Below the pieces are notes generated by a model. That model did no database searches and was not told where the DNA came from. It worked only from the letters and a program-made list of their open reading frames with translations. DNA of 64,000 bases from a virus (taxonomy: Duplodnaviria; Heunggongvirae; Uroviricota; Caudoviricetes): IMG/VR virus record IMGVR_UViG_3300031992_000020. One strand, written 5' to 3'. Position 1 is the first letter of the stretch, and the number at the start of each line of letters is the position of its first letter. The translations under genes and the position numbers were made by a program. Below, in pieces: positions 1 to 64,000 of the stretch.

Positions 1-2
1 AG

Positions 3-749
3 AATGCTTATTATGTTCTATCTGTTGATGTAGGCCGCCGCGGATGCGACACTGTTATTTGTGTGTTTAAAGTAAATCCGCAAACGGCGGGAAATGCAAT
101 AATTAGTTTGGTCAATATTTATACATTGAGTGATGCTCATTTTGAAGATTAGTGTATTTATATCAAAAAATTATACTATAAATATAAAGCAAAGAAAATT
201 GTAATCGACGGTAATGGTCTTGGTATTGGTCTTGTTGACTATTTAGTTAAAGGACAAACAGATCCAGATACCGGAGATTTATTAGCAGACTTTGGTGTAG
301 ACAATGATGAAGATGGTGAATATAAAAAGTATCGCACCGAAGTATGCGAAGAAAATGCTTTATGGATTATTAAAGCTAATGCGCCAATCAATACCGAAGT
401 ACATGGTAATGTTCAGTCCATGATGCAAGCAGGCCGTGTAAAGATGTTAATTGATGAACGTGTTGCAAAAATTAAATTAATGGGTACCAAAAGAGGTCAA
501 GATATGAAACCAGAAGAGCGGGCAGAATATCTTAAACCATTTACCTTAACTTCCATATTAAAGGAAGAAATGATGAATCTTCGTGAAGAAAACGAAGGCG
601 TCAATATCATTTTAAAGCAAGCTAATAAAGGTATTAAGAAAGATAAATTCTCAGCATTTGAATATGGATTATATTGGATTAAATTAGAAGAAGATAAAAA
701 ACGTAAACGCAATAAGAAACGTTTTAGCGATATGCTTTTTATGAATTGA
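3..749 (+). CDS. terL: Terminase large subunit, C-terminal nuclease domain (5'-partial; code 15)
   Basis: The frame is open from base 3 with one TAG at 150-152. It translates to YVLSVDVGR...HFED(Q)CIYIK...IVIDGNGLGIGLVD, an RNase H-like terminase nuclease motif, and joins ORF 420..749, ending in TGA. Confidence 0.9.
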
Positions 750-750
750 G

Positions 751-1116
751 GTGTCAAAAGTGCGTGCTTCAAGAGGAGAAATAAAGATTGAAGAAATATT
801 GCGCGAAGCTGGTCTAAACTTCACAGAAGAACAAATTTTTGAAGGACTTAATAGTCCAAATGGTAGACCATTAAAGTTTGATTTTTGTGTATTTGATGAC
901 GATGGCAATGTAGACTTCTTGATTGAATATCAAGGCAAGCAACATTATGAACCTTCTTCTAAATATGGTGGCAAGCAAGGATTTTATCGTCAGCAATTTA
1001 ACGACAATAAAAAAAGACGCTTCTGCGCGCTTAATAATTATAATTTAATTGAGATACCTTATACTGAGGAAAACTTAATAAGTTATGATTATATCATGGA
1101 GAAAGCTGGATATTAA
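751..1116 (+). CDS. Small PD-(D/E)XK (Vsr/DUF559-like) nuclease-family protein
   Basis: Motif LKFDFCVF...LIEYQGKQHY...DNKKRRFC...LIEIPY. It lies between terL and portal and ends in TAA. Confidence 0.65.
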   Translation: MSKVRASRGEIKIEEILREAGLNFTEEQIFEGLNSPNGRPLKFDFCVFDDDGNVDFLIEYQGKQHYEPSSKYGGKQGFYRQQFNDNKKRRFCALNNYNLIEIPYTEENLISYDYIMEKAGY

Positions 1117-1128
1117 GGAGGGATTGAA

Positions 1129-2766
1129 TTGGCTGACAGATAGGATAGCATCCATGCCAAAGGCTTTTCAATCGTTCAACGTCCAGAATTAAGAGACATT
1201 TATGGTGGCCAAGTCGATTATGGTAAAGTTAAGATTGGTTTTTAGACTCTTGAAGATGCTATAATTGATTTGGGATCTCTTAAAAGGGTCGATAGAAAGA
1301 ATTATAGTAAGTTGTCTGTTATGCAGGCAATTGCGCGAAAGGATTTCGGTGCTTTGCGCAAGATTTCTAATTATTTCTACGAGATCAGTGGTCTATATGA
1401 AAGACTTTGCACTTATTTTGCAGGTTTATATAGATATGATTGGTATATTACTCCATACAAGGTTGAAGAAAAGGCTAAGGATGAAAAAATTTTAGCTGAT
1501 TTTTCAAAAGCTCTTGATTTTATGGACGAGAGTGGTGTGAAAAAATTATGTAAAGATATAGCCTTAAAAGTAATCGTGAATGGTTGCTATTATGGGTATT
1601 ATATTGAAACATCACGTGGTTTTACATTCCAGGAACTTCCTGTCGAATATTGCCGTAGTCGCTTTAAAGTTGGCAATAGACCAGCAGTTGAGTTTGATCC
1701 ACGCTTTTTCGATGACATGTTCCCGGATGTTGAAATGCGACTAAGGGCATTAAAAATGTATCCAGATGAATTTGCTAAGGCTTATGTGCAATATAAAAAG
1801 CGTAAGCTAAATGTAAAAGAAACAGATGGCTCACGAGGTTGGTGGCTATTGGATCCAGATTGCGCATTTAAAGTAAATCTTAACAATAGTGATTACCCAA
1901 TGTTGGTAAATATTATTCCTAAGATTTTTGATCTGGATGAAGCGCAAGATTTAGATCGCCGCAAGATGATGCAACAATTATTGAAGATTATTATTCAGAA
2001 GTTGCCTCTTGATAAAAATGGCGACTTGATTTTTGACGTTGATGAAGCGAAAGATATTCATAACAATACTGTACAAATGCTTCAACGTGCGGTTGGTGTA
2101 GATGTTATGACTACTTTTGCCGAAGTTGATGTTGCAGATTTGGCTGATAAGAATACTTCTACAACAAGAGATGAGTTAGAGAAGGTTGAAAGAGCAGTTT
2201 ATAACGAAGCTGGTGTTTCACAAAACTTGTTCAATTCTAATAGTAACTTGGCTCTTGAAAAAGCTTCTGCGGTTGATGAATCTCATGTGCGCGACTTCGT
2301 ATTTGAGTTTAATGAACTATTTGGTCGTATTTTAAGAATGAAGTTCCCAGCAAATAAAAAGTATTGCTTGCATTTTAATATGTTGGAAACTACAATAAAT
2401 AATTATAAAGAATTGTCTAAGATGTATAAAGAGCATACGCAGCTTGGTTTCTCTAAGATGCTGCCGCAGATTGCTCTTGGTCATTCTCAGAGTTCTATAA
2501 TTGCAACTGCTCACTTCGAGAATGAAGTATTGAAGTTGCAAGAAATTATGATTCCGCCTCTTATGTCTTCTACCTTAAATGGTAAAGATATTTTGCCTGG
2601 CTCCAAAGAAGCTGCTAGTGGCGCTCAATAGGGTGGCAATGGTGCTAGTGCGGCAAAGCAAGTAGCACAAGCCGCAACAGAAAAAAAGATGGGTCGGCCA
2701 GAAAAAGAGGATGGACAGAAATCTGATAAAACGATTGCTAATCGTGAAGCCGCAGGAAAGGAGTGA
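1129..2766 (+). CDS. Portal protein (~545 aa; code 15)
   Basis: TTG start after the AAGGAGG RBS. TAGs at 1141, 1243 and 2629. Reading through 2629 gives the tail GRPEKEDGQKSDKTIANREA and TGA at 2764-2766. Size and position (after terL, before the protease) fit a portal. Confidence 0.85.
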
Positions 2767-2771
2767 GTTAA

Positions 2772-4091
2772 GTGCCTAAACATGTCAGTATTCCTATTGA
2801 TGGAACCGTAGAATTGCTTAATGTAGCTCCAATGGAAGATAATCCATTGCTAAGTCATTGCGATATTAAGGTTTGCTATTTAGGTGAAAATCGTAATCAC
2901 AGTGTGATTAATCGTGAATCTGCTATTAAGATGGCAAAGACTTTACATGGATGTCCTATTGCGGGTTTTTATGACAATAAGCAAGAAGATTTTTCTGGGC
3001 ATAACCGTAGTATTGAGGTTGGCGATGGAAAATTCCGCATTGTTGATAAAACCAAAGCCTATGGATTTGTTGATTCTAGTTCTAAGATATGGTTCCAAGA
3101 TTTTCTTGATGATAATCAAGTAAAGCGGACATACTTATTAACAGAAGGTTATTTATGGACAACTTTATATCCAGAGTCTAAAAGAATTTTAGAGCATGGA
3201 AATAATTAGTCTATGGAACTTAATGAAGAAAATTTAGATGGCTCGTGGACATTTGACGATAAGGGGTTACCTAAATTTTTTATAATTAATGAAGCAATGA
3301 TACAAAAGCTTTGTATTCTTGGAGAAGACGTCGAGCCTTGTTTCGAGGGCGCGGGTATTGCAGCACAATTCTCCTTTGACGGAGACTTCAAGAACAAACT
3401 ATTCTCTCTTATGGAGGATATTAAATCTGCTTTGAACAAAGGAGGATTTACTTCAATGGAAGAAAATAAGATCGTTGATCCTACTTTGGAAGATGAGGTT
3501 AATCCAGAACTCGACTTTAAGAAGAAGGAAGAAGACGAGAAGAAGGAAAATCCATTCCCTCCAAAGGATGACGAAGAAAAAGATACCCCTGATGAGGGCA
3601 AAGATGATAAAGGCGAATCTGCTGAAAAAGAAGAAGATGAGGATGAGAAGAAGAAAGTTCCTGCAAAGCATTCTTTGACTGATGAGGATATTCTTGAATC
3701 TGAACTTTATAAGAATCTTGCTGTTGAGTTCGCTCAGTTACAGAAAGATTTTGATGCTTTGAAGGCAGAGGTTGAGCCTCTTCGCGCATTTAAGGTTGAA
3801 TCTGATCGTAAAGCAAAAGAAGAAATGATTAATAGTTTCTATATGCTTTCCGATGAAGATAAGAAAGATTGCATTGATAATATTGATACTTATAGTCTTG
3901 ATGATATCGAAGCAAAGCTTTCAATTATTTGTGTTCGTAACAAGGTTTCTTTTAACCTTGAAGACGATAAAAAAGAAACAGAAGTAGACAAGAAAGATCC
4001 ACTTCTCTTCTCATTGGATAACAATGATGATGGTGATAGCGCTCCAGCTTGGATTAAGGCTGTAAGAGCGACCGCCAAAGAATTAAACTAA
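2772..4091 (+). CDS. Prohead protease / scaffold fusion (~439 aa; code 15)
   Basis: ORFs 2772..3209 and 3213..4091 are in the same frame and joined by one TAG (GNN-Q-SMEL). The N-terminal part has CYLGENRN and TLHGCPIAG motifs, and the C-terminal part is acidic and coiled-coil-like. It precedes the capsid genes. Confidence 0.75.
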
Positions 4092-4114
4092 TTTTATAAA
4101 GGAGGAAGCTACAT

Positions 4115-4948
4115 ATGGCTTTTACAAGATTGTCTCCAGAAGCTAATTTCGTAGAATTGGGCTTCGGACAGGTTGAGCCTAACCATCTCAGTGCGCAGAG
4201 AACTGGCGAAATTTTCGCACAGTTACCAGCTGCTGCAAATATTGATATTCTTGAGAATGGTCAGTTCGTAAAGTATGATTATGCCAATGGTGAAGTCAAC
4301 TTTGGCGATAATGCTAATGGCTATGCAACTGGTGAATGGATGCTCGTTTACAACGAAGTTAAAGTTTATCGTGACCATGAAACCGATCAGGATTTTGCGA
4401 TGATTCGTCGTGACTACAATGGTCGTGTTTATAGTCCTGTTGGTGTTGGCGCCGCTTCTAGTGCTTGGGGTTCTGCTCAGGGTATTAATGGTGTTGGCAT
4501 TAATGGTTATGCAAGTTCTAATGATTGGGATATGATGAAGGCTATTCAATCTCAGGTTGAACTTTATGCCGATGGACATGATAATGCAGCAGGTGTTGCA
4601 CCAGATTATGGTCGCAATCATTATCCAATCGGAAACAGCTACAAAGTTGAGAAACTTAATGTTCCTCAGATGGCTGAATATGCACAGCCAAACCGTCCAA
4701 ACGGAAATGGTAAGGCTGGTTTGATGGTTCCTCGTGTATTTAAGACTCACGAAGGTGACATCTTCACTACTAATACTATTGCTGTTAAGACAGGCACTAA
4801 CCTTACACTTGGCGAAATTCTTCGTCCAAATGCTCATGGTTATCTTACCAACGACACAGCTGTTACCGGCGACTTCCAGTGGCAGATTGTTAAGATTTAT
4901 AATCTTGGCGATATGCAGAGAGCCGTTAAGGTAATGAGAATTAAGTAA
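4115..4948 (+). CDS. Putative capsid decoration/cement protein
   Basis: RBS AGGAGG. The 277-aa ORF has GFGQVEPNHLSAQRTGEIFAQLP and ends in AVKVMRIK. It lies directly upstream of the major capsid gene and has no TAG. Confidence 0.65.
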   Translation: MAFTRLSPEANFVELGFGQVEPNHLSAQRTGEIFAQLPAAANIDILENGQFVKYDYANGEVNFGDNANGYATGEWMLVYNEVKVYRDHETDQDFAMIRRDYNGRVYSPVGVGAASSAWGSAQGINGVGINGYASSNDWDMMKAIQSQVELYADGHDNAAGVAPDYGRNHYPIGNSYKVEKLNVPQMAEYAQPNRPNGNGKAGLMVPRVFKTHEGDIFTTNTIAVKTGTNLTLGEILRPNAHGYLTNDTAVTGDFQWQIVKIYNLGDMQRAVKVMRIK

Positions 4949-4970
4949 TAAGGAAAGGAGAGAAAAGTCA

Positions 4971-6182
4971 ATGTTAGAAAGAAATGAACTTTTAAAATTG
5001 ATGAAGGCAACTGCTAAGGCTGACCGCTCTGCTCCTGTTGCTTATTCATTCAATGGTGAAAATCTTAGTTACGATGCTCTTAATGAGACTCTTCGTACTG
5101 AGATGAACGAACTCGCAGGCACTTTTGCCCTTTACCGCGAGAATAAGAATACCATCTTCTCTTTGATTGAAGAGACCATGGATGACATTCTTCCTAAGAA
5201 AGTTGAGGAAGAGTTTGAAAAATTTGCAGAAGTAAAGACTATTGCTCAGGGCAACAGCACTATCTTCTGGCGTAAGCATGATCGTCAGCGTGCAAAGCAG
5301 TTCATTACCAAGGTCGGTTTGGCTGGTATCTACGAAGTATTCAAGCTTGGTAAAGATACTCCTATCGAAGTTCAGACCAGTGCTATCGGCGGTGCCGCTC
5401 AGATTGGTCTTGAAGAGTTCTTGGATGGACGTGCTGATTTCGCTGAGGTAACTCGTATTGTTATGGAAGGTATCGAGGAACTCATTCATTGGGAAATCGG
5501 TGCCGCACTTAAAGAAGGTCTTACTCAGCTTCCTGCAATGAATACTGTTGTAACTAACGGTTTCGATGAGAAAGCTTTTGACCGTTTGCTCGCTATCTCT
5601 GCTGCTTATGGCACTCCTACTATTTATTGCACAGAAGAATTTGCTCAGAAGATTCTTCCAAACGATAATGGTGGCACTTATGCTAAGTGGTCCGACAATA
5701 TGAAGGATGTTATTTGGAACAATGGTCGCTTTGCAAATTATAAGAACCATGTTATTAACATTCTACCGCAGGGCTTCACTGATGCTACCCATACCACTAA
5801 GGTTATGGATCCAGGCTTCTGCTATATCCTCCCAGGTAATGTAAAGCCTGTTAAGGTTGTTATGGAAGGCCAGACCATTGTTGATGAGTATGTTAACAAG
5901 GATCGTAGCCGTGAGATTCAGGTATACAAGAAAGTCGGCGTTGGCGTCGTAATGACTCCTGACATTTGCGTATACAAGGATACTGAACTTGCTGGTCAGT
6001 ATGGTGTTTACACTGGTGATAAGACCCCTGCAACACCGGCTGTCGAGTATGAAGTAGTTGCAAATCCAGTAGCAGCTGATGTTGGCAATTATTACATTGC
6101 TCAAATCAATGGTTATACCGTAACCTATGTAAAGGCTAATGAATTTGCCGAGGGCGTAACTTACTACAAAGTTAAGGCTTAA
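4971..6182 (+). CDS. Major capsid protein (HK97-fold inferred)
   Basis: 403-aa ORF with high-expression codon bias (Gln mostly CAG, no TAG). It follows the protease and decoration genes and is followed by a terminator. Confidence 0.85.
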   Translation: MLERNELLKLMKATAKADRSAPVAYSFNGENLSYDALNETLRTEMNELAGTFALYRENKNTIFSLIEETMDDILPKKVEEEFEKFAEVKTIAQGNSTIFWRKHDRQRAKQFITKVGLAGIYEVFKLGKDTPIEVQTSAIGGAAQIGLEEFLDGRADFAEVTRIVMEGIEELIHWEIGAALKEGLTQLPAMNTVVTNGFDEKAFDRLLAISAAYGTPTIYCTEEFAQKILPNDNGGTYAKWSDNMKDVIWNNGRFANYKNHVINILPQGFTDATHTTKVMDPGFCYILPGNVKPVKVVMEGQTIVDEYVNKDRSREIQVYKKVGVGVVMTPDICVYKDTELAGQYGVYTGDKTPATPAVEYEVVANPVAADVGNYYIAQINGYTVTYVKANEFAEGVTYYKVKA

Positions 6183-6193
6183 TTTAATATAAT

Positions 6194-6228
6194 ACGGGCG
6201 TGCGTGACAACACGCCGCCCGTTTATTC
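6194..6228 (+). terminator. Rho-independent terminator after the major capsid gene
   Basis: Hairpin acgggcg-tgcgtg-acaa-cacgc-cgcccgt followed by ttattc. Confidence 0.7.
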
Positions 6229-6253
6229 TATTATATGAGAAAAAGGAGAAAAA

Positions 6254-6847
6254 GTGAATATGAATAATGCTACTTTAATTAACGTCCGCAATAGAAGCAA
6301 TTCTGTTGTGGTATATAATGTAGATGATTTACGCGTGCGCCGTGAGTTTATGCCGGGTGCTGTAAAATCTGTTCCATTGGAAGAGATTTATGCACTTAGT
6401 CAGCAAGCAGGTGGCGCAGAAATTATTGCTAATTATCTATTTATCGAGAATCCTGCCGCGGTGGAAGAGATGTCAATGAAAGTAGAGCCTGAGTATTATT
6501 TAGATGACAAGGGAGTTATTGATCTTCTAAAGAATGGCTCAGTCGACGCATTACTCGATTGTCTTGATTTCGCACCTGCTGGCGTTCTTGATTTAGTCCA
6601 GAAATATGCAATTGAGTTGCCGCTCACAGATACTAGAAAGATCAAAGCAATTAAAGATAAGACTGGTTTTGATGTAGCACTTGCACTCAAACATAAAGAA
6701 GAACTTGCGGCAGAGATGGCTGAAACTGACAACCAGACTGAAAGTGGTATGGATGTTAAGGTTCGCCGCACTCAGCCGACAGCAACAGAAACTCCTTCTG
6801 GCCGTAGAACCGCTCCTAAGTATAAGGTAGTACCTAAGGAGGCTTAA
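6254..6847 (+). CDS. Hypothetical head-associated protein (197 aa)
   Basis: RBS AAGGAG, intact ORF ending in TAA, located between the capsid and neck genes. Confidence 0.75.
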   Translation: MNMNNATLINVRNRSNSVVVYNVDDLRVRREFMPGAVKSVPLEEIYALSQQAGGAEIIANYLFIENPAAVEEMSMKVEPEYYLDDKGVIDLLKNGSVDALLDCLDFAPAGVLDLVQKYAIELPLTDTRKIKAIKDKTGFDVALALKHKEELAAEMAETDNQTESGMDVKVRRTQPTATETPSGRRTAPKYKVVPKEA

Positions 6848-6849
6848 TA

Positions 6850-8667: not shown

Positions 8668-8681
8668 GGAGATAATGGAGC

Positions 8682-9983: not shown

Positions 9984-11105
9984 ATGAAATTTGGTGTACG
10001 CGAAATTTGCGACGTAGTTTTAAAGAAAAAGGCTGCGGGTTATTTCGGCAAACTTTATCTCGATAAAGATATGCCTGTAATGTATTTCGATACCTTGAAG
10101 ACTTCTTCTCTTGAAGGTGCAAGTACTACTGTTTACGCACAGGGTGGTAAAGGTAACCCACGTTTGGTTGCTTGGGAAGGTGACCGTACCGTTACATTCA
10201 CCATGGAAGATGCGTTGATCAGTCCAGAGAGCTTCTCTATCCTTTCTGGTGCAGGTTTCATGGATGCCGATACTGAAAATCCAATTTATGTTCATACTAC
10301 TGAAGAAGTTCAGGTTAAAGATAATGCATTGACCTTGTCTCACGTTCCTGCTGCTGTTGGTGGACTTTTCATTATGCTTAAAAATGAAGATGGTTCTATT
10401 AATACCAACCGCGTTCCTATGGAAATTCCGCTTGGACAGGCTGGCGTTATTGATGGTCGTACTATTGATCTCCAGCAGGCTTTCACTGCTTGGGCAACTA
10501 AGTACAACAATGAGCATAATAAATTGATCAATGCTGGTAAGATTATGCAGGCTGTTGCTCCTGTTGGCGTTAACAACATTGATGATCTTGAAGCTTACAA
10601 TAATGCTTCTACTCCTGCCGATTTTACTGGCGGTGTTGCTGACTATGTAAACGGCACTGACCCAGATTATCCTGGTTCTGTTATGTATGTTGATTACTAT
10701 GTCAAGAGCACTCAGTATGTAAAGCAGATTGACATTGAAGCTGGTAAGTTCGGTGGTTCTTACTATCTTGAAGCTTCTACCTTGTTCCGTGATTAGGCAA
10801 CTGGTGAAGATTATCCTGCTGAGTTCGTAATTCCGAACTGCAAAGTACAGTCTAACTTCACCTTCACAATGTCTCCTACCGGCGATCCTTCTACTTTCAC
10901 TTTCACAATGGACGCTTTCCCAGATTACACTAAGTTCAATAAGACTAAGAAAGTAATCGCGGCTATCCAGATCGTTGAAGATAAGGATCTCTATGATGGT
11001 GGCGTTTCTGATGAAGCTGAGGATGCCAAGGTTGATAATGAGTATCATGAGAACTCTGGTAAGACCCCTCCAGGACGTTTTGCTAGCGCAAACACCGGAG
11101 ACTAA
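9984..11105 (+). CDS. Major tail tube protein (~373 aa; code 15)
   Basis: RBS AGGAGG. ORFs 9984..10796 and 10869..11105 share a frame and are joined by one TAG (TLFRD-Q-ATGEDYPAEFVIPNCKVQSNFTFTM). High-expression codon bias and a downstream terminator. Confidence 0.8.
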
Positions 11106-11181: not shown

Positions 11182-12669
11182 ATGGGTTACTATATTCATA
11201 ATATATATAAAAATATGTCTGCGGGAGATATAAGTAGTCAATTTGGCTTAGAAAAAATTAAGCAATAGGCAGAGGTTGCATTAACGCAAGTTAGAGCTTT
11301 AAATCAACAATTTAAACAAGAAGTAGAGACAAAAACTCAAGGACTTGTTCAATATGAAGAAGTTATGGAATTTTTAGAACGAAGTATTGGACAAGCCGCA
11401 GCGACTTCCATGCAATAGTTATAGGCGATATCCGGTGCGGCAGTACGTGAAGCTATAGATAATGCTATGGCTGCGCAAGGTACGTCTAATTTTTAGGCAG
11501 CTATAACAGAAATGAGTAATTAGTTTGCTAATTTACGTAGAGCGTTTGAGTCTTTTGCTCGTGGTTATGAAACTGCAACCGCGGCAATTAATAAAGATAC
11601 ACCTTTGGGTTAGGCATATTCATCTAATAAAACTACTTTAGATCGAGCATATAGAGTTGTAATGGATACTTTAAATGATAGTGCTTTTAAACGATTAGCC
11701 GGTGGTGGCTTTGGTTCAAAAGATAATTTGTCGAGTTTGCGTGGTTATGTATCTAAAATTGCTACTGGTGGATTATTTTCTAAAAACGAGGGAGAAAAGG
11801 GTGTTAGTCCAGCTGCCGCGATTGGTTTTTTGGCAGAAGGTGTTTATGGTAATGCTTTAAAAGATTTATTCTCGTCTATGTCTTTTGGAGATGGAAAATA
11901 TCAATTATAGGCGACTGCGACAGGTGCTGAAAGTGGTTATGCAATTGTTAATGGTAAACAAGTTGGTTTTGCTGCAAAAACATCTGATATTAGTATTCAA
12001 TTAACAAATAAAGAAGGAACAATGACAATTAACTTGCCTGGTATTTCATTAAAAAGAACTGGTGCATTTTAGCGAGGATAGAATGGTAATATTTTTGCTG
12101 ATATTCATGTTAAAACTTCTAATTTAGGTAATATGTTAAATACTGCACAAGTAAAAGATGATATGCAAAGTCATGTTTATAATTTAATTGCAAACAATGG
12201 GCGTGCAGCTAAAATTGTTGAAAATAATGATGGTACTATTGGTGAAACTTATTAGCATCCTAATATTAATTTAAATGATATGTATAGATGGATATATGCA
12301 GCAACATTATTAGCTAGTTTTGCTGGTAATTTAACTATGAGCGATTTTGCTAATTTTTGGGTTGTTAATGATAAAGTCTATACGGCACCAGAAATTATAA
12401 TTGCCGCATTTAAAGGCAGTATTCCAGCTGGTCATGCTGGGCATCATGCATTTGCTAAATATCTAGAAGATGCAAGTAAATCTGGAATAGCAAAAAGCGC
12501 AGCAAGTATACCAAAAAAACACTCAGAAATTTTTGATAATTTATTGTCAACTTCATTAAGTATGGAAGAACAAAGTAGACGTAGAAGTCAATAGATTATG
12601 GATGCTATGACTGGTATTCCTTACAGTATGCATTTAAGAGTATCTATTAATGCACTTCTAGGTTATTGA
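11182..12669 (+). CDS. Hypothetical protein (~495 aa; code 15, about 11 TAG codons)
   Basis: ATG at 11182 after AAGGTG. One frame is interrupted only by TAG, includes ORFs 11662 and 12280, and ends in TGA at 12667-12669. Confidence 0.75.
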
Positions 12670-13298: not shown

Positions 13299-16200
13299 AT
13301 GGCTGCGAATACAGTTGTTAAAGCAACAGTGCAAATTAATGCCGATACTAGTAGTGCATAGAAACAAATAAAAGATATGCAACAAAGTGTTCAAAAAATT
13401 GCGTCTTTATCTCCGCTCAAATTTGAATCTACTGAATTAAAACAAGGTATAGCAAGTGCGCGAGATTTATAGAAAGCATTAAATGCTGCCGCAAGTGTTA
13501 ATATGGGCAAATTAGATCTTACTGCATTTAATAGATCTTTAAAATAGTCTAATACTAATTTAAGCACTATTGCTGATAATTTGCGTTCTTTTGGTGCAAC
13601 AGGCGCAGCCGCTTTTGATAAAGTTGCTGATGGTTTAACCACTTTATAGAACAATAGCGTAACTGTTAATGGCGCTATTGGAAATTTATTAATTAATTTA
13701 AAGAAAACTGCTCAATGGCAAATTTCTTCTACATTAATTCATAAGTTTGTTGGTAAATTACAAGAAGCAGTTGGATATGCAAAAGATATGAATGAATCTT
13801 TGAACAATATCCGCACTGTTACGCAAATGTCTACTGGTGAACTCGCATTATTTGCAGAAAATGCTCAAAAAGCTGCTAAAAATTTAAGTTCATCTACTCT
13901 TGCTTTTTCTGATGCTGCTTTGATTTATTTCCAACAGGGCGATAAGATGACTACTGCTATGGAAAAAGCAGAGATTACGATGAAAGCTGCTGCTATTTCT
14001 TTTAATTCTAGCGCAAAAGATATGTCTGAATACTTAACAGCTATTTGGAATTCTTATCAAGTTGGAGAAGAAGAGATGGAGCATTATGTTGATATCATGG
14101 CTAACTTAGGTGCTAACACTGCAACTAGCATGGAAGAAATTTCTACTGCATTGCGTAAGGTTGCGGCAACAGCTAATAACGTTGGCGTTGGTATGGAACA
14201 AATGTCATCTATTATTGCAACATCTGCTAGTGTTACTCGTCAAAGTGCAGAAATCATTGGTACTTCTTGGAATACAATTTTAAGTCGTATTGGTGGTTTA
14301 AAACTTGGTGAAACACTTGAAGATGGTGTTGATCTTAATAAATATTCTACTGCATTACAAGCTATTGGTGTTAATGTATTAGATGTTTCTGGCGAATTGC
14401 GTGATATGGGAAAAGTAGTCGATGAAATTGGTGAGAAATGGTCTTCTATGTCCAAGGCTCAGCAATCTGCATTGGCGCAAACCGTTGGTGGCGTACGTCA
14501 GTATACTTAGATGATGGCATTCTTTGATAACTATGATACTTATAAAATTAATTTAGAGTTTGCCGAAGGATCTGATGGCGCTCTTGAAAAGCAATTTAGC
14601 ACTTGGGAACAATCTTGGGAAGCAGCAACTGGTCGTATGAAGAATGCTTGGCAAGGATTGTATAGTGAGATTATTGATGATCAGGCTTTTATTGGAGTAA
14701 TTGATGGCTTATCTGAAGTTATAAATAAAGTTACTGAATTAATTCAAGCTATGGGCGGTATTGGTCCTGTTTTGACCACTATTGGCGGTATGTTTATGGC
14801 ATATTTCGGCGGTAGTGGAGCAATCAGTGCTGGAATTAGTAAAATTGCTAACACTTTTGCTATTATGACTGGTACTGCTAACAAATAGAATATTGCAACA
14901 GCTACGACATTAGCAAAAGGTTATGATACTGCTGCGGCAAATGCTTCTGGCGCAGATGCTGATATTTTAAGATCTAAAGCGTCTTTGGCAAGAGGTTCTG
15001 CAGCTTATTTGAAAAATTCTAATCGTATGTCAGAAGCTGATAAACAAGCGTATGAAGCTGCACGTCAAAATGTTGCATTACAACAGCAAAATTTAAGGGA
15101 AGCACAAGCTAATAAAAATCAAGCTGACGCTCGTGTGGCGGCTTTAAGAAATCAAACAGGTAATAGCGCAACTAGAGAATCTAATAGATTAAATTATTTT
15201 GATGGTAATGTTAACAATGCTTATAATCGTGCTATAAATGCAGGCATTAGTTCTGCTACTTCTACTGGTAAATCTGATTATGCTACTCAATTATAGGAGC
15301 AAGCAGCCAAAGTAAGACAAGCAAATAAAACATTAGAAGAAGCATTAAAATCTGGTAACTAGTCTGCTATTAGTGCGGCTAAAGCTGGATATAGCCAAGC
15401 TACTGCAGAAGCTTCCAATGTAGGTAAAGGTATTGTTGAAGGCTTAACGCAAGAAATTGCTGAAGTCCAAAACAAGCAACAACAATTAACTAATTTATTA
15501 GAAGATCCAGAGCATTATATGACAGATGGTCAATTCGATGCTGAAAAAGCTCGAGCATCTTATAATGAGATTGTTGGGCCAGAAGCCGCAATAGACGCAG
15601 ATGCAGGTAAATTTACTTCTTTTGATAAGATGAAAGAAACTATCACTTCTTCTGTAGAAGGCATGGATGATTTAATAGATAAATATGGCGAAATTGGACA
15701 AGCAAGTGAAACTTTAATTGATGCAAATGGTGAAGTTGGTCAAGAGTTTGGTGAAATGGCTCGTCAAGCTGTTGAAGCTGGAGACGAATTAAGTCATGCA
15801 GAAGATCAACTAGACGAAGCTAGCAAAGGTGTTGAGGAAGCTGGGAATAAATTACCAGGCATTTCTGATAGTCTTGGTGGCTTAGCTGGTGGCATGATGC
15901 AATTAACTGGCGCTATTACAATGGTATCTAGCGCATTTAATACACTTGGTGACGAAGGCGCCAGTGGCGGTCAAAAAGCTATGGCCGTTTTAAGTTTACT
16001 TATTGGAGTTATGACTGGCGTAAGTGCAGCTCAAACGATTTTGAATAATGCTAAGAGTTTAGGCGTAGCAATTACAAAAAAAGCTACTGCCGCAGAAGCA
16101 GCACATAGCACTATTTTTAGTAAATTAATTGTTAAATTATTTGCGCACAGTGCTGCACAAGCAGCAAATACAACAGCAACGAATGTTAATACGACTGCTA

Positions 16201-50200: not shown

Positions 50201-53200
50201 ATTTTCTGGAAAAAATATCGCCATACTACAAATATTCAAACCGAAGATATTCAAACTATTAGATCTGACGTAGATATTAAAAGCAATGGTATTCGTCCTA
50301 TTGAAGAAGCGGCAGACAAAGATAGTGATTATGAATACATTGGTAGATATAACTTCGACTTAGACAAGTCAGAAGCAAAACTTTATGGTTTCTATACTGA
50401 TTATGACAATCATTATGGCGTGCGCTTAGACACTAACAATGTTTATGATGATATCGCTAATGCGTCTGATGTATTAACTGGATTACGTTCTATTCCTATT
50501 CAGCATGAAAGTTTTAGAGCTTTGATTGATGATGATGATGATTTAACTTATGATCCAGCCCAAGTATATTACATTAAACCATATAAGACAGCTGCAACTT
50601 GGACTCAACCAACTATTGATAATAACGGCGCTCAAATTGCTCAAAAGGCATTGAACACTGGACTTAAAGATAGATTAGCAATTGGTCCACTATACGTTTT
50701 AGAAGATGAAACAAAAGGCGCTAATAGTATTGAGTGCTGGGAGTTTTCAACTAATAACGTTAGTGAGCATCCATTACAGTTGCAATTCTTCCAAGACCCT
50801 TGGAGCGAAGAAGATGATCCAACTTATGGAAACTGGACTGAGGCATTTGAATCTCGTTATCCAGAATACGTAAGTCAAGAGTCAACTGATAAGCGTTCAT
50901 TTGCTCGTTTGATTAACTGGGTTGCCAGCACAAATGCAGTAAGAGTTGGGCATGAGCCAACTGCTGAACAGCTTACCGCATGGGCTGCTGATCCTTCTCT
51001 TGTTCCAGATAATTTAAAACCTTTAATTCCAGATCCAATGGAACGTAGATTGCCAAAGATCCAACTTGGCGAGTTCCAGGGTGTAACTGGTATATTATAT
51101 CAAGATACTCCTATTACGGATTCTTGGAATGATATTCCATACGCAGACGCAGCGCGCGGTGTTCGTAATACAGCTCAGTATACTTCTGAGACAACATTCT
51201 ATTATGACTCTTTTGAATATCGTTTACATAAATTCAAGAGCGAATTTGATCAATATTTAAATAGAGATTTTACTCTTATTTATTATATTATTACTGAGTT
51301 CTTGATCGGTAAAGATAGTCGTGCAAAGAATATGATGATGGCTTGCTTCGATGCAAACCCAGAAATGAATGTTGGACATTGGTTCCCAATTTTCTACGAT
51401 GTTGATACTATTCTTGGTCTTGATAACGTAGGTAAATTAAGATATCGTTATGACGAAGAAGATTATGACTATGGTATTTTCAATACCAATGCTGACTATT
51501 TTGACTCTGATGGTTAGACTATTGCAGCAAATTACAGCGTATTGTGGTCTAATGTTCGTCGCACAATGTATAATGAAATTAAGACTATGTATCGTGAGAT
51601 GCGTAGTGCAAGATTTAACTATCAAAATTTGATTGATATTTATAACACTCGTTTAGCCGATGCTTGGAATGCAACATTGATCAACCAAGATGTATGGTAT
51701 AAATTTGTTAGATTCTTAACTGGTTATATTCCAGACAAGGGATTTGATGATTATCCTATTTCTACTCCTAACCCTTCAATTATGTATGCGGCGACTGATG
51801 GAACAACCGCAAACGCTTGGTTGCCTGCGGTCCAAGGTACTCGTTCACTTCATCGTGAGCAAATTATTCGTCGTAGACTTGCATATTTGGATGGTAAATA
51901 TGGTTTCACTGATGGCGGTGTTACAATTGCTTTCCGCGCGCAGGCTGGTCAAGAAGGCGCTGATGAAGGTTATACTCCATTAGGTATTTGGGATTTGACA
52001 GTCCATGACTCTTGCTACTTATCAATTAATGCTTCTGCTGAAAGAACAGTTGGTCCATTCAGATTTACCGAAGGATCAAGAAAGATCATTAACAGTGGTA
52101 CATTCAGTGGTACAGAGCAGGAAATGAACTTCCACTTCTTTAACCAAGTATCTGATTCACATGACTTATCTGGTAAACGTATTGGTACATTGACATTCAA
52201 TGAAAAGCCAGGTTATCCACATAGATTAACCAATTTGGACTTAACACATAGTCGTGTTGGTTATGAACAAACATTCCGTGGACAAAATGTACAGCACTTG
52301 ACACAGTTAAACTTGTCAAGCTTACCTTACTTGCAGACACTTAATGTATCTTATTTATCAAGTTTGGTATCTGTGTCATTGGCTGATAATCCTTATATTA
52401 CTGAGGTTTATGCAAAAGGTATTGGTTCTTCTACTTCTGCAATTACTTTCCCTGATGGCGGTATCTTACGCAGGGTTGAATTACCAAAGAGTTTGACAAA
52501 ACTTGACTTGAAAGGCCATAATTTATTATCTACTCTTGTTGTAGAAGATAATGATTATAGCAAGATCAAAACACTTTATATAGAAGATTGTAAATTAATC
52601 AATACAAAGAACTTGTTTGATAATATTTCTCGCTATGGTAGTGTTGAATAGCTTGAAATCAAGTTGCCAGATATCAATTGGACTATTGATTATAGTGAAG
52701 TTATTCTTGATGGGGACAATATGGTATAGAGTATTCCAATCTTAGACAAGTTGATTTTGGCGAGCGGTCCATCTAGTTCTTCTAAGAATGAAGATAATGA
52801 ATTGATTGAAGGTCGTACTTACGTTGCTGGTACAATCACGATTTTGAATAATGAATCTGGACATGAATTCGGTCTTGATGAAAACGAAATCTATGAAAAG
52901 TATGGTAAGTATTACCCAGGTGTTAAAATTGTATTTACGCATAATAGTTTAAGCACTATCGCATATACATTCAATGCTTGGACTGCTTCTGGCGGTTTAA
53001 TCCAATAGAAGAAGTTAAAATCCAGTGTAGTTGAAAATATTACGTTTGAAGAATTGTTTAATGACACCTTGCCCGCACAGACGAGAGATTCTTCTCCGAA
53101 GTACGATTATACTTTCATTGGTTGGAATTTAACTGGTAACCTCTTGATTGAAGAAGATGACGATGATTATCATTATACATTAACTGATGCAAGAGACATT

Positions 53201-54982
53201 GCAGAAAGTAAAGTAGTTGCTCGTTACAATTATGATCAAAACGCTTATGTGCCTGGAACAGTTATTGAGTTTGGGTCTAACTTGTTTGATGAAACTACTC
53301 GTGAAATGAATATTTATCCTACCTTCTTGGGTACGGTTAGATCATTTGAAGTAACTTTCTACAATAGCGATGATATTGATACTGCTGAGGTATATGAAGT
53401 ATAGACAGTGCGGTATGGCGCTGCTGCAATCGCACCAGCAGTTGCCCCAGTTAAAGTTGTATTCAATGAGAATGATGTAAACGACACTCGTATTTACACT
53501 TTGGCTGGATACAGCAGATCTTTCGCAAATATCACAACTGACAATATTAAGATTTATCCAAGATTTAATACAACTTATACAGATGCAAAAACTTATATTG
53601 CTCCTCCGGAAGCATTTGAAATCTTAGATGCGAACTATTCCGAAGCAATTAATCCTTCTGCTGCACGTTTCAATACTGAGGGCAATATTAATGGTGTTGC
53701 GGTTAAAATTTCTTATGGCTATAACAATGAATTTATTACAATTCCAAAAGCTCTTATGGTTAATGGATATAATAGACCAATTGTTAGCTTGTAGAATGAA
53801 TCTACTAACTTACGCAGAGTATATTTCGAAGAAGGCAATAATATTCGTATTATTGAAAATGGGGCATTCTCTTATTCTGAGAAATTAGAATTTGTAGACC
53901 TTGCCGCATGTACAAATCTTTATAGAATAGGTTCTGCTGAAAATGCTACATGGATTACTGGTGGACCTTTTGCTAATTGCCCGAACTTGAAGGTAACTGC
54001 ATTGCCTGATAGTCTTGCAATTATTGGTCAGCATTGTTTCCGTAATACAGGCACTGGGTCAAAAATAATGATTAGTAAATTACCAGAACACTTACAATTA
54101 TTAGGCAGTTATGCATTTGCTGGATGTACTGAAATTGGTTTATTACAAATGTCCGATTTCTTGCATGATATTCCTGGATTCTGCTTTAATGGATGTTCTA
54201 ATTTGCAGTTACCAAATACTTATTATTTCCAAGGTGTTTACACTATTGGTACAAGAGCATTTGAGAATTGTTCAAGTTTAAATACATTCAATGCAAAACA
54301 GGAAGATGGAACTTACTTATTGTCTGGTACATTACAGAGTATTGGTACTTAGGCATTTAAGGGTTGTAGTAATCTTGGCCTTGAAGCATTACCAGTTTGG
54401 ACTTTGAAAGAGTTAGGAACTGAATGTTTCAGAGATTGCGGATATATCAAGTTAAGTACAGAAATGGCGCAGCCTAGCTTGGCCAATGTCGATACTGATA
54501 AGGTAAAGTGGGGCAAGAACGTATTTGCTGGATGTACCTTGTATAGACGTCTTATAGATCAGTCTGGTGCATATGTTGGCATTGAATCTTTGATGCCTCG
54601 TTTAGTATTGAGATATGGCTCTGGTAAATATGACATTGACCGCGAAGTATTCGGTGAAAACATTACTGATGGTTTACAATTCGCATACTACGATTTTGGT
54701 CAGCCAATAGATACTCATGATGGACAATATGTATACAACGAAAATGCACAAGCTGTCGAAGGTGGCTTGAACCTCTTCGTTGCTGCTTCAAACTGGGGCT
54801 CATTTGGTTCTCAGTTCACGCAGAATCGTAGAGATATCGCTTGGTTGAGCGATCCGAACAATCCTTGGTGCAATGTGCTTGATAAGTTGTTCGAGACTGG
54901 TCAGTTGAGAATTTGGTATACTAAGAATGGTAATGAATACATTTATCATTCTAACTTGAACATTTATATGACCAACAATTAA
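47282..54982 (+). CDS. Giant multidomain tail protein (~2,566 aa; code 15): Mtd_N-like, poly-Gly, Ig-like, LamG-like lectin, CotH-like kinase, LRR, InlB-B-like, BspA-type LRR
   Basis: RBS GGAGG. All same-frame ORF pieces from 47282 to 54404 are joined only by TAGs. Motifs include QGTSSLQYPVKN, YTLKADYMDSSSAHN, INGYPIVIF, YIGRYNFDLDK, DSRAKN, FYDVDTILGLDN, and repeated (I/L)GxxAFxxC. Ends in TAA. Confidence 0.8.
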
Positions 54983-54993
54983 GGAGGTAACAT

Positions 54994-55240: not shown

Positions 55241-55279
55241 GGATAGGGCTTCGCGCAAGCCCTATCCCTTCTAATTTTT
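55241..55279 (+). terminator. Hairpin, probable terminator
   Basis: ggatagggctt-cgcgc-aagccctatcc followed by cttctaattttt. Confidence 0.6.
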
Positions 55280-55302
55280 GAGGAAGGGAGAATAAATAAA
55301 GA

Positions 55303-57180: not shown

Positions 57181-57200
57181 TCTTAAAGGAGGGCTTACCT

Positions 57201-57797
57201 ATGGCATATTTAAATGAAGAAGCCTTCTTTTAGCTATTATCATAGATACAAGAGCATAGCCGAACAATAGTTTATGCTGCGCCGGCTGATCCTAACAAGA
57301 TTATTAATGTTAATCTTGATACAAGAGATATTGAAATAAATAAGTCTGCATATAGCTCCTTTTTAAGTGTTAGAAAGGAGCATTATGCAGAGACAGTTTA
57401 TTTTAAAGTCCCTCGCTATTACGATGGGGTTGATCTAATGCAGATGGCTCTTGTAATAGAATATGTTAATGCTAAGGGAGAAAGTTATATTTCTCCTATC
57501 TTAACTCGTGATACTATAACTTTCCCGGGCTATATTTTATTCGGTTGGTGTTTGCATGGTAATGCAACAAGCATGGCCGGTAATTTACAATTCTCAATTA
57601 GATTTTTCCAAATGGATGTGCCGACCAGCACATTAGTATATAGTTTGCGCACAAAGGCCGCAACAGGAAAAATCTTATTTGGGGTATAGACATCAGACAC
57701 TCCTTCCTCAGAAGAGGGATTGTTAAATAACTATGCATTAGATGAGGTTATCTCTTCTATTGCTCAACATACCACATTGATGTGGACCAATTTATAA
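57201..57797 (+). CDS. Second BppU-like protein (~198 aa; code 15)
   Basis: RBS AGGAGG, ATG at 57201, TAGs at codons 11 and 15 and at 57687, TAA at 57795-57797. It is a paralog of the 55303 N-terminal domain. Confidence 0.6.
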
Positions 57798-57811
57798 GGA
57801 AGTGAATATAA

Positions 57812-59818: not shown

Positions 59819-59828
59819 TAGAATATCC

Positions 59829-59860
59829 AGGGCTAGGGCAAAACCTAGCCCTTATCTTTT
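59829..59860 (+). terminator. Hairpin, probable terminator
   Basis: agggctagg-gcaaaa-cctagccct followed by tatctttt. Confidence 0.55.
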
Positions 59861-59882
59861 GTAGAAATGAGGTGTGGATAGA

Positions 59883-62399
59883 TTGGCTACTCCATTATTA
59901 ACAATATATAAAGGCGATTCTTCATCGTTATCCGATAGTAGCGCTTCTACACTAACACATGATGGTAGATTATACCTTACAACAGATGATGGATATCTCT
60001 ATTATGATATTCCTCATCCTACAAGTAAAAAGTTTGGTGTAGCTGCAACAATCGGTACTAACCGTTTCGCAATTAATGCGAACATGGCAGCAATAGCCAA
60101 AAGACTCGAACATGGTATTGATTTCTGGGTTGAATCTGGACAAATTACTAATTCATTTAATGGTAGTGGTAATGGCAATACTACTGTTTATATAGGAACT
60201 ACATTAGTTGTTGGTGCTACTGCAAATGCAATAGCCAATGGCGCAAGTGCCGCAACCAGCAATGCAGTATATTTAAATCTTTTAACTCGTCAAGGCACTT
60301 CTGCTACTTATAGTAGAAAGAACGGACAAGTTGCTATTAAACTTGTTGGGTCTGGTGATGTTAAAGTTTCTTGTGACGCAGAGGGCAATATTACAATTGC
60401 TGATAAAACCTATACTGCAAGCGGCGGTTTGGAACTAAATGGTACTCAAATTCAACACACTAATTCTGCTATTACTGCGGGCACGATTTCCGAAGGTGGG
60501 TCTGCGCGCACATTAGCATATGGTGGTAAATTTAAAATTCCAAGCATTACTTATAATACTTATGGACATATTACAGCTGTAACGACTACGGAATTGACAT
60601 TGCCTGCTGCTGCTAGTGTATTCACAGCATCTAGTAGTACTGCCGCAGGTAAAAATGGTTTAGTTCCTGGACCTGGTGCAGGTGTTGGTGCAACTGCTTA
60701 TTTAAATGCAAGTGGCGCATGGACTGTGCCACCAAACACTCACTATACCACTCATTTGTTTGTAAATGGCGCGACTGCGGCAGCTACTCATATAACTTCT
60801 GCTGTTACTAATGGGAATGTTCATTTACGTTTATATGATAATATTGATACTACTAATACTGTTAGAGAAGCAATTAAATTGCAAGGCGCTGGCGCATTAA
60901 CAATTACAATTGCCGCAAATGACAATGCTTCTAATAGTACAACTGGTAAAATCACATTCACCGCGGTTAATAATACTTATGAAGCTGGTTCTGGTATTAA
61001 ATTAATTCCGAATGGTTAGAATAGCTATGCAAGTGATAAATACATTATCGCGCATGCAAATGTTTTTGATGCTACTGGCTCTGTTGCTGGCACAGCTGAT
61101 GGTACTACTTTAACAGTTGGTGGAACATTTAAAATTCCGAGATTCAATTATGATATTAATGGTCATTTAACTACAAGTGGACAGAATACTTTGACTTTGC
61201 CTGGCGTAATGAAGGCGGCTTCTGCAAGTGGTGCAGGCGCTGCGGGTTTTGTTCCTGCCCCAGGAAAAGGTAAGCATACTGCATTCCTTCGTGGCGATGG
61301 TACATGGGAAATTCCAACTGATACTAATACTCACTATACCACGAAGATGTTTATCAATAGTGACACAGCAACAAAGGATCATGCTTCTACTGTTGCTGAT
61401 GGGCATGTTTATCTTCGTTTATATGATGATGATGCTGTTGAAAGTACAATTCGTATTATTGGTAGCGATGCTACATCTGTTACTGTTGATACTGCTGGTA
61501 TTATTAAAATCAGTAGCCATAATACGACTTATAATGCAGAAAAAGGTATTAGTTTATCTAATGGTAAGTTCGGCCATACTAATGCGGCGATCACTCCTTC
61601 TTCTTTAAGCGCGAGTGTGACAAGTAACTTAAATGATAATGATTCTCTTTCTATTCCACTTTTGAAATATGATGGATATGGTCATATTATTGGTAACTAT
61701 ACTAACACATTGACTTTCTCTGCATTCCAAGGTGCTAGCTCTGGTGGTAATGGTAAAAAAGGTTTAGTGCCTGCTCCAACCCAGAATGCTTATAACAATG
61801 GTTATTTTTTAAGCGCTAGTGGTACTTGGGAAAAACCAGCTTATATTCCTGATACACATTATACTACAATGATGTATGTAAGTGATTTGAAAACTGCAAC
61901 GAGTGCAAACTCATTAGCCAATGATCATGTCTACATTACATTGTTTGATAATAGTACATACCGTACTCGTGTAAAATTGGTTGGTGCAACTGGCCAGATG
62001 GGTAATGGCGTAACAGTAACATCTGCTGAAAACGTTATTACCTTTACTGTTGGTTTATTCAAACCTGTTAATACCACAGCTGGTACTGCTAGTGTAGCTG
62101 GTTTAGTGCCTGCGGCAAGTGATAATAATAATAAAAAGTATTTGTGTACTACTGGTGAATGGACAGTTCCAGAAAACACTACATACACATTTACTGATAC
62201 TTATAATGCATCTACTAACCCTGCGGCTACTAAGACTTATGCTTAGAATCAAGCGCAAGCTAAATATAATGCAATAGAAGAAGAACTTAATAGAGAAGAT
62301 GCGATAACTAATGAAACCACTGGCGTTGTTACTCCACAAGTTGGTTATCAAATGTCTACGGCAGAAGTAGATGCAATCTTTGATGAAGTGTTCTTATAA
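59883..62399 (+). CDS. Tail fibre protein (~838 aa; code 15)
   Basis: TTG start 8 nt after GAGGTG. ORFs 59874 and 61191 plus the tail are joined by two TAGs. It has four G(L/F)VP(A/G)(P/A) modules and three YxxxGH motifs. TAA at 62397-62399. Confidence 0.7.
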
Positions 62400-62401
62400 T
62401 T

Positions 62402-63295
62402 ATGAAAATTAAATTACTTTTAACAAGAGATGAGAATATTAAACATTACAATGCCAGTGAAGTAATGATTGATATTGAAGAGTATGTGCGCGGCGTTGTT
62501 GCATCGGAAATCGGCAACGCCGCACTTGAAGCCTGCAAAGCACAAGCTGTTGCGGCTCGCACTTTTGCTCTTATAAAACATAGCAAGGGGTCACGAATTA
62601 CTGATAAAAGTAGTTCTGACCAAGCTTTTCGCGCGTCAAGACTTTCCAATTCGTATGCTAATGTGCTGCTAGCTACGAAAGAAACTGCGGGCCAAGTCTT
62701 GTATTATAATGGTAAATTAGTTACCACGTGTTCTTATTCTAACTCAAATGGAGGACGTATTAAATCGTCAAAAGAAGTTTGGGGTGGAGAAAGAGCATGG
62801 CTGATTTCCAAAGAAGATCCATATGATCATGGACCTGGAAACGGTCATGGTGTTGGGATGTCTCAGTATGGCGCGAAAGAAATGGCTCGGTTAGGATTTA
62901 ATTATAAACAAATTTTACAATTTTATTATCCTAACACAGACCTAAAAAATGATTATGGATCTATACCACAAGAACCAGAGGTGATTAAAGTGGCATATCA
63001 AGCTAAAATAACAGCTCCTTCTGGGAAAACTGTTAATATGCGGCAAAGTGCATCGACGTCTGCACCAGTAATTGTTCCAATTGCTATTGGAGAAATTGTT
63101 GATGTGGTAAGTGTCACAGGAGAATGGTCACAAATCACATGGTGTAACAAATCTGGCTACATGATGAGTAAGTATCTTGCAAAAGTTGATGGAACTGAAA
63201 AAAATAAAATTTGGTATGTCAAGATAGAATGTGACAGCGAAGAGCAAGCAAAAGCCTTCGCGCAAATCCTCAAAAAGGCGAAAGCAGCCACTTGA
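62402..63295 (+). CDS. Endolysin: SpoIID/LytB-type lytic transglycosylase plus SH3b cell-wall-binding domain
   Basis: EEYVRGVVASE...KAQAVAART, YSNSNGG, GHGVGMSQYGA...GFNYKQILQFYYP, then the SH3b-like VNMRQSAS...GEWSQI...GYMMSKYL. No TAG, ends in TGA. Confidence 0.85.
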   Translation: MKIKLLLTRDENIKHYNASEVMIDIEEYVRGVVASEIGNAALEACKAQAVAARTFALIKHSKGSRITDKSSSDQAFRASRLSNSYANVLLATKETAGQVLYYNGKLVTTCSYSNSNGGRIKSSKEVWGGERAWLISKEDPYDHGPGNGHGVGMSQYGAKEMARLGFNYKQILQFYYPNTDLKNDYGSIPQEPEVIKVAYQAKITAPSGKTVNMRQSASTSAPVIVPIAIGEIVDVVSVTGEWSQITWCNKSGYMMSKYLAKVDGTEKNKIWYVKIECDSEEQAKAFAQILKKAKAAT

Positions 63296-63581
63296 ATTTA
63301 GTAAGAAGTTAACGATAGCGGATATAATCGTTTATCTTGCTCTTACTTTAATCTTGATGGGTTTATTATTTTTTAATCCAGAACTTGAAGCTTTTGCAGG
63401 GACCATTTTTGCGTATTTAACCACGACTTATGTATCATTGCGTCTCGGTTATACAGCAAAAGCCGGTGTAGAAAACTACAAAAAAATTGCTGAGAACTAT
63501 AAAGCAATCGCGGAACTCATGCCGATCGATGAAGAAGAGGAAGATGATGAGCCTAGCGATGAAGAAGAAAGCTTAGGCTGA
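63231..63581 (+). CDS. Putative holin (start uncertain)
   Basis: Basic N-terminus, EFSKK motif, two hydrophobic helices and an acidic C-terminal tail. It is adjacent to the endolysin and ends in TGA. Confidence 0.6.
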   Translation: MTAKSKQKPSRKSSKRRKQPLEFSKKLTIADIIVYLALTLILMGLLFFNPELEAFAGTIFAYLTTTYVSLRLGYTAKAGVENYKKIAENYKAIAELMPIDEEEEDDEPSDEEESLG

Positions 63582-63603
63582 TCACAAGAAAGGGTGAGTT
63601 ATC

Positions 63604-64000
63604 ATGGTTACTTGGGCGATGGTTCTTGAAACGGCCATCAAATGGTTAATTCCGGTTATATGTGTAGCTATTGTAGGTTTAATCACAGCTCATGTTATTA
63701 AACCATATAAAGCGGGCAACGCTGCAAAACAACAAGAGGAATGGGATGCACATTTTGCTGCGTCTAATAAGCCTCGTGAAATGTGTGATCGTGAGCTTCA
63801 AAGCACAAAGACTGAATTAAGAACTACTCTCACAGATGCAGATACTCAAATATTAGAGCAGATTAAAACTATTAGCTCTAATATAGAAAAGTAGAACGAG
63901 CAAAATAAAATGCACAATGAAAAAGTAGATAAGTCTATTAATTTAATTCAACAAGGTGTTTTAGATGCTCATTTACAAAATCTTATTGCAACATGTCAAG
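63604..64000 (+). CDS. Membrane-anchored coiled-coil protein of the lysis region (3'-partial; code 15)
   Basis: N-terminal transmembrane helix (WLIPVICVAIVGLITAHVI). After the TAG at 63892-63894 the frame stays open to the window end (IEK-Q-NEQNKMHNEK...GVLDAHLQ). Confidence 0.65.

Follow-up and report, generated by a model that had tools for sequence, protein, structure and literature searches.

Recoding of TAG from stop to glutamine in late genes, together with phage-encoded suppressor tRNAs, has been reported in many clades of gut phages (bioRxiv 10.1101/2021.08.26.457843). Proteomic evidence has established it in crAss-like phages (Peters et al. 2022, PMC9523058), and the phAss-1 group is a further reported instance (Babkin et al. 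2023, PMC10607447). Here we analyse a stretch of 64,000 nucleotides (termed the window) from IMG/VR virus record IMGVR_UViG_3300031992_000020, for which a prediction made from the sequence alone had proposed that TAG encodes glutamine (genetic code 15). This phage is a further case of the known TAG-to-glutamine recoding, and the prediction is accurate and has good support. In common with the code 15 phages of the crAss-like, Lak, Garnet, Amethyst, Agate and other groups, it carries TAG chiefly in structural and late genes, encodes its own tRNA with a CUA anticodon (tRNA-CUA), possesses a replication module compatible with the standard code and is low in GC content. It differs from them in belonging to an SPbeta/EF1-like siphovirus lineage from the sheep rumen, in that release factor 2 (RF2) and aminoacyl-tRNA synthetase genes were not found in the contig, in that its endolysin gene lacks TAG, and in being known from sequence and RNA. 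With the monophyletic group of phAss-1 and EF1 (NCBI “Caudoviricetes code 15 clade”) it shares a syntenic head and tail block, and with phAss-1 itself a giant tape measure gene, TAG suppression in virion genes and a homologous long-arm tRNA-CUA. The tape measure protein comprises 4518 amino acids (aa) here, compared with ~3150 in phAss-1, and only the long-arm suppressor was found here, whereas phAss-1 has in addition a 72-nt glutamine-like one.

The window corresponds to the reverse strand of bases 61785-125784 in a single linear IMG/VR virus contig of 149,432 bp, rated 86% complete, from which it differs at 2 of 64,000 positions. Public metagenome and metatranscriptome runs from the gut and rumen of sheep, originating from several studies, contain this stretch; the gut-phage context initially assumed is upheld and can be narrowed to the sheep rumen or gut. 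The window comprises the late block, with virion and lysis genes, of a siphovirus of ~150 kb or larger from this environment. Judged by portal protein identity, the closest named phages are phAss-1 (36%) and Enterococcus phage EF1 (~30%), with Bacillus, Lactococcus and SPbeta-like siphoviruses as more distant kin, and protein identities to phAss-1 range from 24 to 51%. The head and tail module is homologous to and syntenic with that of the phAss-1/EF1-related large siphophages and includes the giant tape measure gene; orthologs in relatives carry the Pfam domains YomU_Tube and YomO. These sequence comparisons place the phage in the SPbeta/EF1/phAss-1-related group. The genus Phassvirus, membership of which requires a genome nucleotide identity with phAss-1 of ~80% or more, was considered and rejected, as a megablast search with 20 kb of the window gave no nucleotide match to the phage collection. 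For comparative purposes 21 related IMG/VR loci were retrieved via the portal protein (identity 51-99%), and the homologous 45-70 kb stretch of five long relatives was retrieved for alignment.

Under translation table 11 the plus strand of the window is split into 42 open reading frames (ORFs) with 150 aa or more (maximum 946 aa), whereas 32 abutting plus-strand genes result when TAG is translated as a residue, among them ORFs of 4518, 2566, 1916 and 1472 aa. The longest ORF extends from 955 to 4,519 codons once TAG is opened. Plus-strand coverage by stop-to-stop ORFs no shorter than 100 codons increases from 80.3% to 98.1%, compared with 82.2% and 85.7% when TGA or TAA, respectively, is opened as a control; the comparison of coding density under codes 11 and 15 that had been suggested as a check (80% versus 98%) is therefore favourable to code 15. 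In total 114 in-frame TAGs are present in 20,594 codons, together with 530 CAA and 179 CAG, which gives TAG a share of ~14% (13.9%) of the glutamine codons of the window.

Of the 114 TAGs, 94 are spanned by single-frame tblastn alignments to related contigs that extend at least 15 aa in both directions, and in the tape measure gene same-frame homology crosses 28 of the 30 TAGs. The 11 TAGs of a conserved ORF located at 11182-12669 were not covered by the first relatives but are covered by four further homologs (34-90% identity), each of which contains 10-15 TAGs at shifting positions, mostly swapped with CAA. Altogether 105 of the 114 TAGs lie within same-frame homology. As the original prediction stated, no frameshifts are needed, and the only interruption in the window that is not TAG is an intron. 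The further statement that standard annotation conceals the largest genes is true of table 11, but publicly available gene calls, both for this contig and for its relatives, already treat TAG as glutamine.

The in-frame TAGs could in principle be genuine stops, in which case the phage would be decayed or defective, its genes would be short or the sequence would contain assembly or sequencing artefacts, and it is true that table 11 yields many ORFs of 150-600 aa. However, TAG alone interrupts the genes, and homology continues in frame on either side of it. Since TAA and TGA together make up 5-7% of the codons in non-coding frames, a stretch of 4518 codons without either is not attributable to chance (probability <1e-100, by arithmetic from the frame counts). 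In addition, the same architecture is seen in many independent metagenome contigs, and the stretch itself recurs in sequencing runs, of DNA as well as RNA, from several studies of sheep. It is thus extremely unlikely that these TAGs terminate translation in the conventional way.

With respect to the amino acid inserted, the TAGs of the window are aligned in relatives with TAG (94), CAA (61) and CAG (23), followed by a scatter of other codons, and the TAGs of relatives are aligned in the window with CAA (192), TAG (94) and CAG (77). TAG is almost never found opposite TAT/TAC, TTG or TCN. We computed the likelihood of each residue at the TAG columns using an empirical substitution matrix, derived from all remaining aligned codons in the same alignments. 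Glutamine ranks first by 216 natural-log (ln) units when all pairs are counted; with one weight per position, serine, threonine, glutamate and lysine fall 38.9, 40.1, 43.1 and 49.2 ln units below it, and leucine and tyrosine are outside the eight best residues. Glutamine also ranks first in the head block and the tail block separately. The predicted preference of homolog columns for glutamine is accordingly borne out by at least 38.9 ln units, and all six sequence motifs in which TAG had been noted at a glutamine position are present, their columns in relatives containing only TAG, CAA or CAG. In the cultured Enterococcus phage EF1, which uses the standard code, 6 of the 16 sites aligned with TAG are CAA or CAG; as a baseline, the ordinary glutamine codons of the window align to glutamine in EF1 at 24%, and background glutamine is ~3%. 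The remark that TAG often lies beside other glutamine codons holds weakly (13.2% for TAG and 10.3% for CAA/CAG, with 7.8% expected).

A potential decoder of TAG is encoded elsewhere in the genome. At one end of the contig, 19 tRNA genes lie on the early strand, and one of these bears the anticodon CUA (genome positions 3516-3605, outside the window; 90 nt; 55.4 bits with the Rfam tRNA model). Coverage, homolog columns, likelihood, the EF1 comparison and this tRNA-CUA all agree with the code 15 assignment, and we consider it very likely that TAG is a glutamine sense codon in this late block.

Several observations nevertheless weigh against the assignment. The variable arm of the tRNA-CUA is ~23 nt long and class-II-like, a feature that alone would suggest serine, leucine or tyrosine. 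A search of the rest of the genome for tRNA-CUA, RF2 and glutaminyl-tRNA synthetase (GlnRS), recommended with the original prediction, succeeded for the tRNA only: no match to the RF-1/RF-2 domain (PF00472) or to the Glu/Gln-tRNA synthetase domain (PF00749) was obtained in the 86%-complete contig. An accessory RF2 or GlnRS is an optional feature of code 15 phages, possessed by a minority of those known. Residues other than glutamine occupy many TAG columns of the fast-evolving tail genes, although glutamine is still first in the tail-block likelihood, 11.7 ln units over threonine. The endolysin gene contains no TAG, and the bias towards lysis genes noted by Borges et al. is not visible in this gene. 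Peptide proof comes from crAss-like phages, and in the present phage the assignment is drawn from sequence comparison and RNA contigs. Finally, the indication of a host is weak and amounts to related contigs binned in rumen Bacillota metagenome-assembled genomes (MAGs), nothing further. When bacterial genomes were scanned with the anticodon arm of the tRNA, five MAG contigs matched, and ARAGORN located a long-arm suppressor on one of the five, which derives from a Bacillota MAG.

To examine the suppressor more widely, relatives of the tRNA-CUA were collected with the anticodon arm alone (loci L063-L089). This yielded 26 tRNA-CUA genes, 21 of which have the long arm and represent the sole tRNA-CUA within the fetched stretches of their contigs. 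Among 22 aligned long-arm members (these 21 and the phage's own copy), G73 and G10 are invariant, whereas nucleotides 1 and 72 fail to pair in 11 and otherwise form A-U, U-A or G.U, never G-C. U35 is present, and the CUA anticodon has A36 in place of the glutamine-identity nucleotide G36, a YUG triplet being found in the variable-arm loop. By the rules of E. coli GlnRS, the glutamine identity set includes G73, U35 and a weak first pair, and an amber tRNA-Ser with a long variable arm is reported to have been switched from serine to glutamine by changes in the acceptor stem (PMC9976931). G73, the weak 1:72 pair and U35 of the tRNA-CUA are therefore consistent with the column evidence for glutamine. 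The amber suppressors of E. coli that insert glutamine (supE, and derivatives of tRNA-Ser, tRNA-Asn and tRNA-Lys in which the 1:72 pair is weakened or G73 is present) are similar in combining CUA and its U35 with G73 and a first pair that is weak or mismatched (PMC9976931), but the tRNA of the phage occurs naturally, is conserved, and bears a 7-nt CUG/UUG loop on a variable-arm hairpin.

The length of the variable arm might be taken to indicate that TAG is read as serine, leucine or tyrosine, and the ARAGORN label “tRNA-Pyl”, which is given from the anticodon alone, would imply pyrrolysine. The likelihood deficits of serine, threonine, glutamate and lysine, the rarity of TAG opposite codons for tyrosine, leucine and serine, and the combination of G73 with a weak or mismatched 1:72 pair, which is the glutamine pattern, make insertion of another residue highly improbable. 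Serine, tyrosine, leucine and pyrrolysine readings of the tRNA-CUA were ruled out by the column likelihoods together with its acceptor features.

In all 22 long-arm members the variable arm folds into a hairpin with a 7-nt loop, which presents CUG (18 members) or UUG (4 members) at anticodon-like positions, and compensatory changes are seen in two of the three stem pairs. CUG and UUG are the two glutamine anticodons. It is conceivable, and we suggest it only tentatively from these alignments, that the variable arm in this clade constitutes a second, anticodon-like hairpin, the tRNA being the single adaptor behind the reassignment. If the host GlnRS, or glutamyl-tRNA synthetase acting with GatCAB, were to read this decoy loop, this would account for charging efficient enough to get past the 30 TAGs of a single gene. 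Literature searches, judged from the titles and abstracts retrieved, gave no paper that describes the decoy-loop idea.

The genes of the window terminate with TAA (24) or TGA (8). This had been offered in support of code 15 and is true, but as originally framed the argument is circular, because such an outcome is automatic once TAG is opened. Independent support comes from the TAGs in the last 50 codons of genes, which align to sense codons in relatives, from the 69 genes genome-wide that lack an internal TAG, all of which (69/69) end in TAA or TGA, and from the contrast with the homologous block of EF1, where 8 of 35 genes end in TAG at the same GC content. TAG is therefore not used as a terminator. 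The TAG at aa 791 of 841 in the ORF at 59874-62399 was judged by gene packing only. With regard to sequence context, the base following in-frame TAG is A in 45% of cases, compared with 32% after CAA/CAG, a marginal, non-significant difference (p = 0.057), and the base following true stops is T in 50%.

TAG is not evenly distributed in the genome. Ten large replication and nucleotide-metabolism genes on the opposite strand, including those for Pol III alpha, NrdD, GyrA, GyrB, RecJ, DnaB and an SF1 helicase, contain no TAG among 236 glutamine codons, an outcome with a probability of ~5e-16 (by arithmetic) at the 13.9% share found in the window. Within the window itself, four head and tail-tube genes (4115-6847 and 9984-11105) use 37 CAG, 3 CAA and 1 TAG (n = 41), whereas CAA is 3.7 times commoner than CAG in the rest of the window (Fisher p = 2e-20); TAG accounts for 1 of 41 glutamine codons in these four genes versus 113 of 782 elsewhere (Fisher p = 0.03).

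A temporal switch of the kind modelled by Borges et al. (bioRxiv 10.1101/2021.08.26.457843) may operate here. The host would use the standard code, and the TAG-free early genes and the tRNA array would be expressed first. A host enzyme would then charge the phage tRNA-CUA with glutamine by virtue of G73, the weak 1:72 pair and U35, and the charged tRNA would outcompete host release factor 1 (RF1), after which the late genes would become translatable. As a refinement of the glutamine assignment, TAG might be decoded only partly and late, with host RF1 terminating a share of translation, so that TAG would serve as a timer or attenuator. The absence of TAG from the replication genes, its scarcity in the four head and tail-tube genes, which are presumably highly expressed, the failure to find RF2 or another release-factor gene in the contig and the marginal excess of A after TAG are all in keeping with such partial decoding, which has nevertheless to contend with proteins of 4518 aa (30 TAGs) and 2432 aa (25 TAGs) that would demand very efficient read-through at each site, and with the free exchange of TAG and CAA among relatives, as expected of synonymous codons. 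We regard partial and late decoding as a serious possibility, albeit somewhat short of probable.

The features of the late block, with TAG read as glutamine and with the basis of each assignment in brackets, are as follows:

1-64000, plus strand: late block of a large siphovirus, with virion and lysis genes; 32 genes, 114 in-frame TAGs
Window start, plus strand: probable large terminase, C-terminal end of a 576-aa ORF (ORF call)
1129-2766, plus strand: portal protein, 545 aa, 3 TAGs (phrog_2739, E 1e-83)
4115-6847, plus strand: three head genes without TAG, comprising a probable scaffold, a probable major capsid protein (4971-6182) and a probable head protein (position)
9984-11105, plus strand: tail tube protein (YomU-like), 373 aa (phrog_2729; orthologs in relatives carry PF27173 YomU_Tube)
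11182-12669, plus strand: conserved 495-aa ORF of no known family; 11 TAG, 18 CAA, 0 CAG (homologs)
13299-26855, plus strand: tape measure protein, 4518 aa, 30 TAGs (PhageMin_Tail at the N-terminus)
26965-32673, plus strand: tail protein exon 1, 1903 codons, 22 TAGs (RNA junction)
32674-32994, plus strand: group I intron, 321 nt (Rfam RF00028, 63.9 bits versus a cut-off of 50)
32995-34584, plus strand: tail protein exon 2, 529 codons, 3 TAGs (RNA junction)
40512-44930, plus strand: tail protein, 1472 aa, 3 TAGs (four ORFs under table 11)
47282-54982, plus strand: tail or fibre protein, 2566 aa, 10 TAGs (BspA-type leucine-rich repeat region)
62402-63295, plus strand: endolysin with SpoIID and SH3 domains, 0 TAG (domain search)

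Most virion proteins could not be named from Pfam, NCBIfam and PDB sequence searches. The portal TAG columns in relatives contain mostly TAG, CAA or CAG. The scaffold, major capsid and head protein roles are probable and were assigned by gene position; the “major capsid protein” label is taken from position because the AlphaFold model of the putative capsid protein, built from a 9-sequence alignment, was unusable (mean predicted local distance difference test score, pLDDT, of 42), and a scan of bacterial genomes gave no relative of this protein. The tail tube gene has 1 TAG, 10 CAG and 0 CAA as glutamine codons. It is followed by the conserved ORF at 11182-12669, which lies between it and a chaperone-like gene and has the highest TAG density in the window, TAG representing 38% of its glutamine-type codons.

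Tape measure proteins of relatives range from 4278 to 4959 aa. Near the C-terminus of the protein encoded here (aa 4228-4378; window 25980-26430) there is a Hint/intein-like domain with matches to PT-HINT, Hint and Intein_splicing. The corresponding EF1 gene (MF001358, 17737-25764) is labelled “cobalt-zinc-cadmium resistance protein” in GenBank, which is evidently a misannotation. All three TAG sites of the 1472-aa tail protein are sense codons in relatives, and the alignments cross them. The 2566-aa protein contains a BspA-type leucine-rich repeat (LRR_5, E 2e-24) at aa 2229-2339 (window 53966-54298), which could be a host-binding part.

One tail protein gene is interrupted by a group I intron. 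RNA contigs from three runs, representing two samples, join position 32673 directly to 32995, and a DNA run lacks this junction. The intron begins after a U at the 5' splice site and ends in G, and its removal keeps the frame to give a product of 2432 aa. The intron had been recognised in the original prediction, but at 32713-32994 (282 nt); the RNA-defined 5' boundary lies 39 nt upstream, at 32674. Rfam at the gathering threshold gave no match in the window as a whole and missed the intron, whereas the RF00028 match appeared when 800 nt were searched alone, so that the blank whole-window result reflects a filter effect. An intron-less allele was not found; the alignment of one relative (G003) stops at about the splice junction. 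A minus-strand ORF of 166 aa (32718-33218), listed when TAG is read as glutamine, extends over intron sequence and the first part of exon 2 and is most likely not a gene.

The RNA contigs also bear on the possibility that mRNA editing converts UAG to CAG, in which case the ribosome would meet no stop. The spliced RNA contig (run X8, record 28) retains the three exon 2 TAGs at 33487, 33520 and 34075 unaltered, which excludes such editing there, and contigs from RNA library X3 match exactly at 13 further TAGs. The genome, moreover, encodes a tRNA-CUA. RNA editing was rejected on the unaltered TAGs, and we give it next to no chance of being correct.

Table 11 shreds this 64-kb block and hides the 4518-aa tape measure protein, the 2566-aa fibre protein and the 2432-aa tail protein, and rumen virome studies must therefore use code 15 for contigs of this type. 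The phage provides a clean and well-controlled example of a split architecture, in which TAG-free replication genes are set against TAG-bearing late genes, in a Bacillota-type siphovirus lineage that lies outside the crAss and Lak phages in which the phenomenon is best documented. Its suppressor tRNA family makes the charging of CUA-tRNA and the competition with RF1 testable questions.

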